64,000 nt of DNA from Escherichia phage vB_Eco_slurp01, in the sequence record LT603033, one strand, 5' to 3'. Shown piece by piece: positions 15,099 through 26,951 of the stretch (position 1 is its first letter; every line of letters starts with the position of its first letter). Under the pieces are notes generated by a model, which saw only the letters and a list, made by a program, of their open reading frames with translations, did no database searches and was not told the origin of the DNA. A program made the translations under genes and the position numbers.

Positions 15099-15365
15099 AT
15101 GAATATTAAGTATTTTGCGACGCGTGAACAAGCTCGGATCGCCGCACGCCAGGACGGGGCAACGTTTAAAGATATGGGCGTACAATCGGAACGTGGTAAA
15201 CGTTGGGCCATTGTAAAGCGTAGTACCGCCAGATCATTACAGTACTGGTTAGCGGCCTTAAAAAGACCCGATAGTGTATCGCGACGAGTGGTAGAAATAA
15301 AGCTCGACCGAAAGGGCAACCGCGTGACCGTGTACCGTACTAAAAAGATTGCAGTACTTGAATAA
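15099..15365 (+). CDS. Hypothetical early protein (88 aa); paralog of 26556..26951
   Basis: Trimmed ORF; shared KYFATREQARIAAR...FKDMG...RKGNRVTVY. Confidence 0.7.
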   Translation: MNIKYFATREQARIAARQDGATFKDMGVQSERGKRWAIVKRSTARSLQYWLAALKRPDSVSRRVVEIKLDRKGNRVTVYRTKKIAVLE

Positions 15366-15373
15366 AAAGTACT

Positions 15374-15400
15374 TGCAAACTATGTTTAAAGGCGTATAAT
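15374..15400 (+). promoter_or_regulatory. Early promoter
   Basis: TTGCAA N15 TATAAT; hairpin GCGGGAA-CTC-TTCCCGC at 15415-15431. Confidence 0.7.
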
Positions 15401-15452
15401 GTTTTACATCGAGAGCGGGAACTCTTCCCGCCTATAACCTGGAGTAATAAAA

Positions 15453-15683
15453 ATGACTAATATGTATATGACTGAAGTTAAAACCGTAAAAGATACTACC
15501 ACGAATAAAACTACTTACTTACAGCGGATCTGTGGTGTATGGCAACGTATCAGCAAATCAAAGTACTTTAAATTAACATCATATGCAAACCGTTCGGATT
15601 CATTCAGTACTGAAATAAAAGGTAATAAAGTACACCAATACGGCACTTATTATTATTATAGCCTGGACGCGATTGCAGTATAA
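15453..15683 (+). CDS. Hypothetical early protein (76 aa)
   Basis: ORF track; GGAG RBS. Confidence 0.65.
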   Translation: MTNMYMTEVKTVKDTTTNKTTYLQRICGVWQRISKSKYFKLTSYANRSDSFSTEIKGNKVHQYGTYYYYSLDAIAV

Positions 15684-15713
15684 GCAGTTTACAAATCTTT
15701 ACAATTGCCGGTA

Positions 15714-15742
15714 TTGACTTATTTTGTCAGTACTGGCATAAT
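15714..15742 (+). promoter_or_regulatory. Promoter driving a non-coding stretch
   Basis: TTGACT N17 CATAAT; no ORF over 25 aa follows. Confidence 0.5.
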
Positions 15743-15744
15743 GT

Positions 15745-15925
15745 ATTCATTGGCAGATAAGCCGTAGCCCATAGGGTGCGGGAGTGTATCTATAGAAAAA
15801 GTAGTTTATTACAGTTACAATTGTGCACCCGGTGGGTTAGCTGTTGTCATGGGGTATATTATGCCAGTACTGGATAGTGCTGTCAATACCTTTTTACTAT
15901 TCAGTACTGAAAACTATTTTTAAAA
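15745..15925 (+). ncRNA. Candidate small non-coding RNA
   Basis: Promoter-driven, no ORF; contains inverted copies of the CCCAYNGGGTGC motif that could pair. Confidence 0.3.
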
Positions 15926-15930
15926 AGTAC

Positions 15931-15958
15931 TTGCAAACTATGTTTAAAGGCGTATAAT
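15931..15958 (+). promoter_or_regulatory. Early promoter (upstream member of a tandem pair)
   Basis: TTGCAA N16 TATAAT. Confidence 0.7.
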
Positions 15959-15965
15959 GTTTTAC

Positions 15966-16040
15966 ATCAGGACGGGGAACGAAATAAGTAACTCCCCATT
16001 AAGTAGCCCAGGAGTAAGGCACACGAAAAACTCCCCTGAT
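15966..16040 (+). other. Conserved ~75-nt structured leader element (copy 1 of 3)
   Basis: ATCAGG...CCTGAT closing helix plus internal GGGGA/TCCCC stem-loop; near-identical copy at 25361-25433, related copy at 18275-18385. Confidence 0.5.
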
Positions 16041-16047
16041 AAAATAG

Positions 16048-16076
16048 TTTGAAAATTGTTTTTAAAAGCGTATAAT
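16048..16076 (+). promoter_or_regulatory. Second promoter of tandem pair
   Basis: TTTGAA N17 TATAAT. Confidence 0.5.
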
Positions 16077-16108
16077 ACTTACATCAACTACTGAATGAGG
16101 GTTACAAA

Positions 16109-16720
16109 ATGAAAACTATCACTACTACTACTTTCGTTATGGATTTTTCTGAATTGAACGCAGAACAAAAAACGTCAGCTATCGAACTGGTTCGGGAACG
16201 TGAAAAAAACTCAAACGACAATTATTTTTCTGAAAGTGAAATTGAATACTATAAAGAAACAGTACTACCGGAATATGGCATTAATGACGCTGAAATACAA
16301 TTCAGTGGTTTTTGGTCCCAGGGTGACGGTGCATCAATCAGTACTGACCACGTTGACGCAGTGAAGTTTTTACGCAAGGTAAGAGCATTAACTAAGTATC
16401 GCTCAATCCGTCACCTGCTGAATGAAGATGATTTGGCGATGAGTGTAAAGCGTTCTCACTCTCACTACTCGCATGAGAACACTGTAAGCGGGTACATTGA
16501 ATCGGCTTACACTGATTTAACCGCAAAACAAGAAACGTTAGTTAATGAGCTTGAGGAACTACTCACTGAAACTATTCGTGAATTGTCACGCAAGTTGTAC
16601 CGTGATTTAGAGAATGCATATGAGGATCAATTCACTACTGAAAACATCGTAGCACTGATTGAGGGTAACGAGTATCAATTCAATGTTATTGATGGCGTAG
16701 TAGAATCAATCGAATATTAA
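16109..16720 (+). CDS. Hypothetical acidic protein (203 aa)
   Basis: ORF track; GAGGG RBS. Confidence 0.75.
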   Translation: MKTITTTTFVMDFSELNAEQKTSAIELVREREKNSNDNYFSESEIEYYKETVLPEYGINDAEIQFSGFWSQGDGASISTDHVDAVKFLRKVRALTKYRSIRHLLNEDDLAMSVKRSHSHYSHENTVSGYIESAYTDLTAKQETLVNELEELLTETIRELSRKLYRDLENAYEDQFTTENIVALIEGNEYQFNVIDGVVESIEY

Positions 16721-16732
16721 TTCAAAAAGTAC

Positions 16733-16760
16733 TGGACACTAAGCAATAAAGGCGTATAAT
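16733..16760 (+). promoter_or_regulatory. Early promoter
   Basis: TGGACA N16 TATAAT; hairpin AGCGGGAA-TAG-TTCCCGCT at 16774-16792. Confidence 0.6.
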
Positions 16761-16812
16761 ACTTTATATCGAGAGCGGGAATAGTTCCCGCTACTAATGA
16801 GGAATACTACAA

Positions 16813-25320: not shown

Positions 25321-25325
25321 AGTAC

Positions 25326-25353
25326 TTGCATTGTACTTAGAATCAAGTATAAT
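25326..25353 (+). promoter_or_regulatory. Early promoter (upstream of tandem pair)
   Basis: TTGCAT N16 TATAAT. Confidence 0.7.
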
Positions 25354-25360
25354 GTTTTAC

Positions 25361-25433
25361 ATCAGGACGGGGAACGAAACAAGTAACCCCGTTAAGTAGT
25401 CCAGGAGTAAGACATAAGAAAACCTCCCCTGAT
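25361..25433 (+). other. Conserved structured leader element (copy 3)
   Basis: Near-identical to 15966-16040, with register-shifted stem that preserves pairing. Confidence 0.5.
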
Positions 25434-25441
25434 AAAATAGT

Positions 25442-25470
25442 TTGACAATAGAAAGTAAACGAGTATAATA
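25442..25470 (+). promoter_or_regulatory. Second promoter of tandem pair
   Basis: TTGACA N17 TATAAT. Confidence 0.65.
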
Positions 25471-25502
25471 CTTACATCAACCACTGATAAGGAAACATAA
25501 AA

Positions 25503-25778
25503 ATGCGGATTCTACTGACAGCTAACGAAATCGAACAAGTACTGACTACTAACCTGGAAGACTGGAAACGTGAAGCAGATATCCAGGCGGTTCAACGGCT
25601 TAACGATGAGTTAACGCCGGATGACTTAAGCAAGATTGTAGATCCTCAATTCTACGAAGATATCCACGACACCGCGTTAAGCGTCGAGGATGTACTAGAT
25701 AAGCACTACATTGATATTGATTTGCAGGTTTACGGTCGTAAAAACTTTATCACTATTCACGACATTTACAATAATTAA
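25503..25778 (+). CDS. Hypothetical acidic protein (91 aa)
   Basis: ORF track. Confidence 0.7.
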   Translation: MRILLTANEIEQVLTTNLEDWKREADIQAVQRLNDELTPDDLSKIVDPQFYEDIHDTALSVEDVLDKHYIDIDLQVYGRKNFITIHDIYNN

Positions 25779-25780
25779 GT

Positions 25781-25808
25781 ATTGACAAAGTATCTTAGTA
25801 CTGTATAA
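25781..25808 (+). promoter_or_regulatory. Early promoter
   Basis: TTGACA N16 TATAAT; hairpin GAGGGGAA-TGG-TTCCCCTC at 25823-25841. Confidence 0.7.
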
Positions 25809-25865
25809 TAGTTTACATCAAGCGAGGGGAATGGTTCCCCTCCTAACTAAAAGAGAGAAATAAAA

Positions 25866-26048
25866 ATGGCTAAGTGCACTATCTGCAAGAAAGAAATAGT
25901 ATTAGTTCCAAGTGCCCGTGAACGTGCCGCTCGGTTCGGTGGCAAAGCGTCAGACTATACAAAAATGTTTACTACCCATACAGCTTGCCAGGTAGCAAAA
26001 CGTTCACAAGAAAGCGTAGAATTAATGCGTAAACTTTCCAAAAAATAA
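25866..26048 (+). CDS. Small Cys-containing protein (60 aa), possible zinc ribbon
   Basis: ORF track; CTICKK ... HTAC. Confidence 0.6.
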   Translation: MAKCTICKKEIVLVPSARERAARFGGKASDYTKMFTTHTACQVAKRSQESVELMRKLSKK

Positions 26049-26051
26049 GTA

Positions 26052-26079
26052 TTGACAAAGTATCTTAGTACTGTATAAT
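26052..26079 (+). promoter_or_regulatory. Early promoter (near-duplicate of 25781)
   Basis: TTGACA N16 TATAAT; hairpin 26094-26113. Confidence 0.7.
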
Positions 26080-26136
26080 AGTTTACATCAAGTGAGGGGA
26101 AACGGTTCCCCTCCTAACAAAGAGAGAGAAATAAAA

Positions 26137-26460
26137 ATGGCTATGATCCTTGCCCAGAAAGTGGAACTGAAAATTGTAACCTCCTTTGACATTAATGTTA
26201 ATCGGTGGACTGATTCACACGGCAATACTTACCACTCTTGCTACGTGTCTGCGTTAATTGGCGACCGCTGGGAAGACCTGGGACACGAAACCTTTACATA
26301 CGGTTACGGTACACAAGGCGAATACACGGGCTTGGAGATCATTAAAGAAACCGTTATAGGTTTCAACCCGAAAGAAAAAGTTATTCACCGCATCGAGGAA
26401 GAGATCAACAAAGAAATAACAGTTCGCTACCACGATGTAAAACGTAAGAAAGACATGTAA
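26137..26460 (+). CDS. Hypothetical early protein (107 aa); paralog of 19703..20026
   Basis: ORF 26092..26460 trimmed to MAMILAQK. Confidence 0.7.
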   Translation: MAMILAQKVELKIVTSFDINVNRWTDSHGNTYHSCYVSALIGDRWEDLGHETFTYGYGTQGEYTGLEIIKETVIGFNPKEKVIHRIEEEINKEITVRYHDVKRKKDM

Positions 26461-26482
26461 TAGAATCCATTTAAAGTACTAT

Positions 26483-26511
26483 TTGACATTGCCCAGATAG
26501 TACTTTATAAT
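26483..26511 (+). promoter_or_regulatory. Early promoter
   Basis: TTGACA N17 TATAAT. Confidence 0.7.
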
Positions 26512-26555
26512 AGACTCTAACTTGTAGTACTAACTCAACTAATAGGATGTATACC

Positions 26556-26951
26556 ATGATTACTAAATTCTACGCTACCCGTGAAGCTGCCCGTATTGTT
26601 GCACGCGAGGAAGGAGCAGCATTTAAAGACATGGGCAAAGATGCACCGAAAGGTCAACGCTGGGCCGTACAGTTCAAAGAAATCTCTGATATCGTGAATT
26701 CACCGGAGCCAGTACTAACAGCAGCAGAACTAAAACGAGCGGATTTACTGGCGGCAGTACTTAACGCACAAGATGAATTTATCGCTGATTCTGATATCAA
26801 AGTACAGACAAACCATACCGCTTGGACTCACGCGGATCACCTGGCAAACCTTAAGCGTCCAAGTGAACTGGTTCGCAACCAGAAAGAGATCCGACACGAC
26901 CGTAAGGGTAATCGTGTAACAGTATACAGTAAACGCCGCCAGGTTATCTAA
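26556..26951 (+). CDS. Hypothetical protein (131 aa); paralog of 15099..15365
   Basis: ORF 26547..26951; ATG with better spacing after AGGA. Confidence 0.7.
   Translation: MITKFYATREAARIVAREEGAAFKDMGKDAPKGQRWAVQFKEISDIVNSPEPVLTAAELKRADLLAAVLNAQDEFIADSDIKVQTNHTAWTHADHLANLKRPSELVRNQKEIRHDRKGNRVTVYSKRRQVI

Follow-up and report, generated by a model that had tools for sequence, protein, structure and literature searches.

The window analysed here, a stretch of 64,000 nt from Escherichia phage vB_Eco_slurp01 (sequence record LT603033), contains two pairs of small homologous genes, A/A' and B/B', located in a region of short genes in which promoter cassettes are repeated many times over (Table 1). 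By its sequence, the window is DNA of a jumbo coliphage of the genus Asteriusvirus (121Q/PBECO4-like), one of the Rak2-like phages. In a megablast comparison of 14-33 kb with phage genomes, the Asteriusvirus jumbo coliphages (121Q, PBECO4, G17, vB_Ec-M-J and others) gave a patchy coverage of 29-77% at 90-98% identity. The homologous DNA of vB_Ec-M-J is annotated as a direct terminal repeat (DTR) of 21,525 bp (1-21525), whose first base aligns at window position 12519 and its last at ~32218, so both gene pairs lie in the terminal-repeat region. In fEgEco12 the DTR measures 20,993 bp (PhageTerm and restriction digests) and in phage Sharanji 20,668 bp (PMC13070987, PMC11895373). The region of the window holds ~48 small genes, all of them on the + strand and nearly all hypothetical. 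The comparable regions of vB_PcaM_CBB (CBB), with RpoD-like promoters, have been proposed to contain early genes (PMC5259590), and "early" is likewise a presumptive label for the genes and promoters described here.

Table 1 Features of the A/A' and B/B' region (positions in the window; aa, amino acids; RBS, ribosome-binding site; UTR, untranslated region)
Feature	Position	Strand	Remarks
DTR-equivalent region (~20-21 kb in Asteriusvirus)	12519..32218	.	Alignment to vB_Ec-M-J DTR 1-21525
Cassette of the DUF7249 gene 14771-15010, promoter and stem-loop	14679..14770	+	Repeat flanking the extra gene EcMJ_002 in vB_Ec-M-J
Upstream cassette of A	15014..15098	+	A' promoter subtype; no 5' UTR stem-loop
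Gene A, 88 aa, short phrog_8127 member: N-terminal module and C-terminal basic beta-hairpin, no linker	15099..15365	+	
B promoter cassette, TTGACA-17-CATAAT with TG, no stem-loop	19607..19702	+	Family D18 repeat; flanks EcMJ_016 in vB_Ec-M-J
Gene B, 107 aa, phrog_6246, in a slot with strongly divergent alleles in sister phages	19703..20026	+	
Promoter and stem-loop cassette copy 1, TTGACA-16-TATAAT, stem-loop GAGGGGAATGGTTCCCCTC, RBS	25765..25865	+	96% identical to the single 121Q cassette
60-aa CxxC gene between two cassette copies	25866..26048	+	Missing in 121Q; 95.6% nt identity with a gene of Justusliebigvirus BME3
Promoter and stem-loop cassette copy 2, upstream of B' (predicted driver)	26035..26136	+	Alignment to copy 1
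Gene B', 107 aa, phrog_6246, strand-strand-strand-helix-helix-strand	26137..26460	+	
A' promoter, TTGACA-17-TATAAT, no stem-loop	26459..26555	+	Subtype as upstream of A
Gene A', 131 aa, long conservative phrog_8127 member	26556..26951	+	
Intrinsic-terminator-like hairpin and T-run directly 3' of A', closing the B'-A' unit	26974..27001	+	Sequence
Third copy of the 25781/26052 cassette type	28896..28993	+	Two copies flank the extra gene EcMJ_044 in vB_Ec-M-J

The four open reading frames (ORFs) had been put forward as dispersed paralogs in an original prediction made from the sequence, and all of them are present and contain the peptides quoted there. A and A' are homologous at the protein level (BLASTP 65.5 bits, E 3e-20, 36% identity), and so are B and B' (86.3 bits, E 2e-28, 38% identity along 107 aa without a gap). 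When the 346 ORFs of the window were compared all against all by BLASTP, both pairs appeared as reciprocal matches (E 6e-18 and 9e-26, respectively) and were the only genuine protein pairs within 14-32 kb. The members of each pair match one and the same PHROG profile over their full length, phrog_8127 in the case of A and A' (E 2e-26 and 3e-35) and phrog_6246 in that of B and B' (E 1e-39 and 8e-36). Scans of the 64 kb window with profile hidden Markov models (HMMs) detected no further member of family A or family B. Family A is characterised by the conserved motifs KFYATRExAR…FKDMG…RW and DRKGNRVTVY, and family B by RWTDSxGNTYHS, FTYGY and VKRKKD. In small ORFs of a genome with low G+C content, such similarity might arise by chance or from low-complexity or compositional bias. 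This reading is already refuted and we give it practically no credence, since the E values of 3e-20 and 2e-28 were obtained with compositional adjustment, both pairs match single PHROG profiles (E 1e-26 to 1e-39), and conservation was seen across 45 database clusters for family A and 542 for family B. Nor is the similarity confined to low-complexity segments: it includes the conserved motifs, and B' is confidently modelled as a compact globular domain with a predicted local distance difference test (pLDDT) score of 95. The ratio of non-synonymous to synonymous substitutions (dN/dS), which had been suggested as a check, gave no answer, with dS saturated and an identity at third codon positions of 0.27-0.35. 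The orthologs of the pair members in vB_Ec-M-J are 96-99% identical, whereas dS within the pairs is not estimable, and therefore the splits A/A' and B/B' long predate the divergence of the close relatives.

The cassettes share one layout. An A-rich stretch comes first, followed by a near-consensus sigma-70 promoter and often by a G/C-rich stem-loop, and a Shine-Dalgarno site then precedes the ATG. At least 10 of the 12 positions of the sigma-70 consensus are matched at 42 sites of the + strand, 10 of which are perfect (12/12), and a cassette was found directly upstream of 34 of the 48 DTR-region genes. There are several cassette subtypes, with 3-21 copies each, and repeat families of 12-21 copies carry AAAAAGTAC upstream of the -35 box. 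In ~20 cassettes a GC stem-loop of the GGGGAGAAnnGnTTCTCCCC hairpin type starts ~12 nt past the -10 box, with a predicted energy of -12 to -20 kcal/mol; the cassettes of A, A' and B have no stem-loop. Further copies of the B promoter cassette are located at 22441-22507 and 30090-30156.

Two other kinds of intergenic repeat were observed in this array. One, present in four to six copies, was found at 21575-21720, 25183-25325, 28450-28605 and 30719-30880, with weaker copies at 15700-15830 and 23255-23375. It is composed of an A-rich stretch, a 12-bp hairpin AAAGGGATTGACTCCGGTCAGTCCCTTT in which a TTGACT -35 box is embedded, and a TATTAT -10 box, with a conserved motif, GCCCACAGGGTGC / AGCCCACAGGGTGCAnnnGTGTATCTAT, downstream of both hairpin and -10 box. 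It usually sits just 5' of an ordinary promoter cassette, has no match in Rfam, and might act as a tandem promoter, encode a short non-coding RNA or bind a protein. The other is a two-promoter leader of 192 nt, which for this array is a conserved 5' region of unusual length, found at 15903-16094 and 25298-25487 in copies 85% identical that precede unrelated genes (16109-16720, 203 aa, and 25503-25778, 91 aa).

From the paralogs, the early region had been predicted to have grown by segmental duplication followed by divergence. What stands of this claim is that the homologs are true, although far diverged, and that in A/A' a copied unit of promoter, 5' UTR and ORF can still be recognised. The duplication was not segmental, and duplication was not the main route of growth either, as just 4 of the ~48 DTR-region genes have a paralog there. 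The gene order of the two pairs is different, with A separated from B by 4.3 kb and ~12 genes and B' directly followed by A', all on the same strand. Neither all-against-all BLASTP nor profile searches of the window found any copy of the ~12 genes between A and B or of the neighbours of B'A'. The BLASTN comparison of 13.5-32.5 kb with itself retrieved intergenic cassettes of up to 240 nt and, beyond them, a sole match of 178 nt (67% identity) covering the promoter and the 5' coding end of A/A'. Neighbouring genes in the same order with similarity also in the intergenic DNA, the mark of a segmental (multi-gene) duplication, were not found.

It could still be argued that one multi-gene early segment was duplicated, diverged and was then mostly lost or rearranged, leaving A/A' and B/B' as its remains. 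Both pairs do lie on one strand within the same ~12 kb, and B' adjoins A'; besides, genes of families A and B lie next to each other in EJP2, in Av-05 and in one metagenomic contig too, so that A plus B could be the copied unit, and unequal crossing-over between cassettes would yield tandem segmental duplications. However, A precedes B whereas B' precedes A', all on one strand, and neither a tandem duplication nor an inversion accounts for such a reversal. The missing paralogs of the intervening and neighbouring genes, even by profile search, and the end of the DNA similarity at the cassettes also speak against such a segment, as do the different promoter types of B and B' and the presence in EJP2 of both A lineages together with only one B-family gene. 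We consequently disfavour this model, which we regard as improbable.

The promoters at 25781 and 26052 had been taken as a further sign of the same process. They are indeed duplicated, the blocks 25765-25872 and 26035-26143 being 92.7% identical over 109 nt, with another such block at 28896-28991, but the two promoters turned out to be two copies of one cassette placed around the 60-aa CxxC gene rather than copies of a segment. Phage 121Q has no such gene and carries a single cassette directly 5' of B'. Given also the identity of the gene to its counterpart in BME3, this arrangement is the signature of an insertion. The block shared with BME3 starts in the stem-loop and RBS (83%), continues through the ORF and reaches into the next promoter (88%). 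Cassettes are thus shared between phage families and can supply homology for exchange.

Similar differences were detected at other positions of the region. The extra genes EcMJ_002, EcMJ_016 and EcMJ_044 of vB_Ec-M-J are each located between two direct copies of a cassette (76-98 nt, 90-100% identical), while the window has one copy at each of these sites. In the same phage, the DUF7249 genes EcMJ_003 and EcMJ_007 (vB_Ec-M-J 2445-2775 and 4549-4878) share 76% nt identity over 334 nt, a stretch whose limits are exactly the promoter cassette and the stop codon. Of the two copies, the window lacks the second (junction 16803/16969) and has only the one at 14771-15010, and this pair is a younger example, among the relatives, of the duplication of a whole cassette. 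Four genes of the DTR region are 83-96% identical in nucleotide sequence to genes of coliphages of ~135-150 kb (Stephanstirmvirinae, Vequintavirinae). Besides the CxxC gene, they are 14771-15010 (just 5' of A), 22235-22447 and 29263-29454, which match at 83-90%. Such values indicate recent gene exchange between phage families.

Family A is small and restricted to phages, with 45 clusters found in one search and 58 representative clusters (40-184 aa) in an exhaustive profile search of 1.84 billion proteins; no domain fusions were seen among these 58. It spans the Rak2-like jumbo phages and is nearly always single-copy outside Asteriusvirus. Its members begin with a conserved N-terminal module of ~40 aa (strand-helix-strand-strand) and end in a basic C-terminal beta-hairpin, likewise conserved. 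The acidic linker in between is variable, and the ~45-aa linker of A' is missing in A. The N-terminal module of A' is 87% identical to that of RaK2, to which the module of A is 58-63% identical, and only 58% identical to that of A, even though A and A' have a specific promoter and 5' UTR in common. The gene 5' of the RaK2 family A gene, RaK2_00352, was considered as a hidden member of family B and showed no similarity to it.

The divergent Asteriusvirus EJP2 helps to date the pair. EJP02_516, found there in the position of A, has a C-terminus 85% identical to A versus 61% to A' and has kept the linker, and EJP02_016, which adjoins the family B gene of EJP2, has a C-terminus 67% identical to A' versus 48% to A. 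Since both lineages are already present in EJP2, they predate the ancestor of the genus. EJP02_516 can be explained equally well as a chimera of A' and A or as the retention of an ancestral state, with A evolving faster. In all the Asteriusvirus genomes examined, one promoter and 5' UTR subtype is common to the A and A' lineages and is found upstream of no other gene there, which points to descent from one cassette within this lineage. The -35 box of the A lineage has decayed. The A promoter of the window (15030-15075) reads TTGCAC, with 13 nt to the TATAAT, and its spacer has a 5-nt deletion relative to the A' promoter, so A may be expressed by read-through from the predicted promoter at 14692. 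Each Asteriusvirus genome has one conservative and one fast-evolving copy. From these sequence comparisons, A/A' most likely goes back to the ancient duplication of a single entire cassette, after which the two copies evolved asymmetrically. One cassette, with its promoter, 5' UTR and ORF, would have been duplicated before the last common ancestor of the genus; A would later have lost the linker and the -35 box, and A' would have stayed conservative.

For the B pair the picture is different. Matches of B' in tblastn come from Asteriusvirus only, and the family B profile search retrieved 542 clusters, many of them on contigs of ~150 kb and jumbo phages. In a neighbour-joining tree of 107 columns, B clusters with P0048, P0050 and P0051 (90% bootstrap), and B' weakly with EJP2_015 and two metagenomic proteins (54% bootstrap), homologs from other contigs branching between B and B'. 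In at least nine Asteriusvirus records, among them phAPEC6, UE-S1 and TH47, the ORF in the B slot has been swapped from the ATG to the KRKKDL codons, with the flanks kept, so that promoter and downstream sequence are as in the window. The swapped-in allele (P0098) is 36% identical to B and 80-85% to a gene of ~130 genomes of Phapecoctavirus and Justusliebigvirus, coliphages of ~150 kb; this type of slot is located at L035/L036 5001-5345 (GCA_029742005, GCA_958319075). Further alleles exist that are 83% and 71% identical to B. As the slot holds a divergent allele in sister phages, duplication has a demonstrated alternative in the import of a homolog, and for the origin of B/B' such an import appears, on the sequences compared, as well supported as a duplication.

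This alternative could be extended to both pairs, supposing that nothing was duplicated within the genome and that all four genes were acquired independently from an early-gene pool shared by large enterobacterial phages. The replacement in the B slot by an allele close to Phapecoctavirus and Justusliebigvirus genes fits this idea, and so do the neighbouring genes nearly identical to those of unrelated coliphages, and the homologs of other contigs that branch between B and B'. It also fits that A' has an N-terminal module nearer to RaK2 than to A. Yet the promoter and 5' UTR subtype of A/A' precedes none of the other genes in the region, and outside Asteriusvirus phages nearly always have a single family A gene. 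With its 58 representative clusters, family A offers few possible donors, and a faster evolution of A would also account for A' being so close to RaK2. We consider an entirely independent acquisition unlikely, although less so than the duplication of a segment.

The explanation that we prefer, and that we take to be probably the right one, is the turnover of single-gene cassettes (by duplication, relocation, replacement and import) through recombination at the repeated cassettes. The region is built as an array of ~50 predicted single-gene expression cassettes, whose sequences recur dozens of times in the genome and have similar counterparts in other large coliphages. Repeated and shared cassettes put ~50-100 nt of homology on offer for recombination, which would delete, insert, relocate, duplicate or replace single ORFs, both within the genome and between co-infecting phages. 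A/A' would have originated by duplication of one cassette, and B/B' either in the same way or by the import of a divergent homolog into a cassette slot. We infer recombination at the cassettes as the cause, and the direction and timing of the events along with it.

Several points weigh against this explanation. Promoter activity, the function of the stem-loops, recombination and mini-circles are all predictions for this phage group. The stem-loop is 3' of the likely transcription start and has no U-run, so it may be a stabiliser of the 5' UTR rather than a terminator. The promoters of B and B' are unrelated and nothing ties this pair to a duplication at the cassette level; the family B tree is, moreover, weakly resolved near B' (the node with 54% bootstrap). 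The adjacency of A- and B-family genes in several phages hints that a two-gene unit, not single genes, may once have been copied. Of the 45 unique synteny breakpoints found in the comparison with five relatives, 26 fall in cassettes, which make up 24% of the region (p = 2e-6), but the cassettes also fill 66% of the non-coding DNA and the enrichment is inseparable from a survival bias for intergenic breakpoints. For this reason it was downgraded as a proof of recombination at cassettes. In addition, the ends of BLAST alignments are imprecise and breakpoints common to relatives are not independent.

The proteins themselves gave few hints about their function. No Pfam match was obtained with the four proteins or with longer family members, sequence profiles of families A and B found no match in the PDB, and phrog_8127 and phrog_6246 are both annotated as "unknown function". 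The predicted model of A' is of moderate quality (pLDDT 72) and a search by fold returned no structural neighbours in the PDB. That of B' is very confident (predicted template modelling score, pTM, of 0.86), and its neighbours by fold in the PDB were only weak matches to RNase-H-like folds (E of at least 0.03, TM-score of 0.37 or less). An RNase H-like nuclease was considered for family B and rejected, there being no significant structural match and no DEDD pattern; the invariant residues of the family are W24, Y55, G56, Y57, V101 and D106. In a viral structure library, the only good matches of B' were uncharacterised phage proteins of Salva and Av-05. Strongly basic motifs end both families, and nucleic-acid binding would be our guess for them. 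Two compact, widespread and uncharacterised families, one of them with a confident and new-looking fold, are candidates for functional screens.

Genes of both families are found 0-1.3 kb apart in Asteriusvirus (B'A'), in EJP2 (015-016), in Avunavirus Av-05 (0031-0032), in one contig of ~147 kb and in three contigs of ~150 kb. In Av-05 the order is A-B (L005 7983-8732), opposite to B'A', and another neighbouring pair is located at L030 3989-5207. In the three ~150 kb contigs (L008, L011, L014), the family A gene is a stand-alone N-terminal module of 56 aa situated ~1-1.3 kb 3' of the B homolog. Among the viral contigs outside Asteriusvirus, a partner was present within 4 kb at 3 of 16 loci anchored on B and 2 of 8 anchored on A. 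With 13 of the 16 and 6 of the 8 loci having no partner within this distance, a general linkage of the families is not established and the adjacency is suggestive. On this basis, A and B could conceivably form a linked two-gene early module (for instance in host takeover or anti-defence) shared by unrelated large enterobacterial phages, of which the window would contain two diverged versions, B'A' adjoining and A…B split, and the B slot would be a hot spot of allele swapping under arms-race selection. We consider this rather doubtful.

Some observations were made in other parts of the window. The first ~1.7 kb of the DTR region (12519-14257) has no convincing gene and includes a 53-bp tandem repeat (three copies at 14051-14209) whose copy number is different in vB_Ec-M-J; this stretch may have to do with packaging, replication or the end of the genome. 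Across the whole window, scans for Rfam families and for tRNAs gave no match. Outside the DTR, the window is dominated by tandem arrays of paralogs (7752-12123, 32286-38893, 41342-43307, 48163-49898 and 49908-52232), which include ~15 genes encoding ~60 aa each, ~30 encoding ~70 aa whose start and stop codons overlap, and several arrays with products of 120-190 aa. Six paralogs of ~400 aa are found on the - strand at 258-7443. Growth by tandem duplication is real there, in contrast to the 14-32 kb region.

The corrected view is that the early region turns over gene by gene at promoter cassettes, with exchange that includes Stephanstirmvirinae and Vequintavirinae. If true, this would help to explain why variability is highest in the ~20 kb repeats, the genomes being colinear elsewhere. 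The B slot and the genes next to it are also places where phages used in therapy differ in their accessory early genes.

Arrangements of this kind have precedents. The morons of lambdoid phages are accessory genes inserted singly among resident ones, each with its own promoter (and terminator); to our knowledge, they are not bounded by a repeated family of cassettes. Phage T5 carries its first-expressed host-takeover (pre-early) genes in a long terminal repeat, and we know of no first-step transfer or pre-early gene class in Asteriusvirus. A nearer case is vB_PcaM_CBB, in which RpoD-like promoters precede short hypothetical ORFs, presumed early, and extend into a terminal repeat of ~22 kb, some of the ORFs being noted as paralogs (Buttimer et al. 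2017, PMC5259590). The available text of that description lists promoters and paralogs without an analysis of cassette-flanked differences, slot replacement or exchange across families. The closest parallel is found in the T4-like phages, for which the promoter-early stem-loop (PeSL) model and its diagnostic signature were described (Arbiol et al. 2010, PMC2839356; Comeau et al. 2014, PMC4122927). As in PeSLs, the intergenic motifs are repeated, ~100 nt long, and combine an A/T-rich stretch, a consensus sigma-70 promoter, a stem-loop with G/C tracts, a Shine-Dalgarno site and the start codon, and they lie 5' of small, functionally uncharacterised genes in a region that varies strongly. A gene flanked by two cassettes in one relative and replaced by a single cassette in another, the pattern from which excision and insertion mediated by PeSLs were proposed (PMC2839356), was found here in four cases, and ORFs are also replaced between cassettes. 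The hairpin overlapping the -35 box, seen in the second class of repeats, corresponds to a described PeSL subclass. The differences are that the array belongs to an Asteriusvirus, a Rak2-like jumbo phage, and is located in a long direct terminal repeat, and that most of its stem-loops lie past the -10 box and the probable start and lack a U-run, which makes a role as terminator doubtful. In the literature searched we found no description of PeSLs for Asteriusvirus or Rak2-like phages. The signature as such is present in the sequence, with a near-consensus promoter and its A/T-rich stretch, a stable stem-loop, a Shine-Dalgarno site with a small gene, and the differences of two cassettes versus one. 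In our analysis the region thus appears to match the PeSL-type modular shuffling known for T4-like phages, here in the terminal repeat of a Rak2-like phage, and if the cassettes act like PeSLs, the terminal repeats of Rak2-like jumbo phages share a mechanism described for the T4-like phages.

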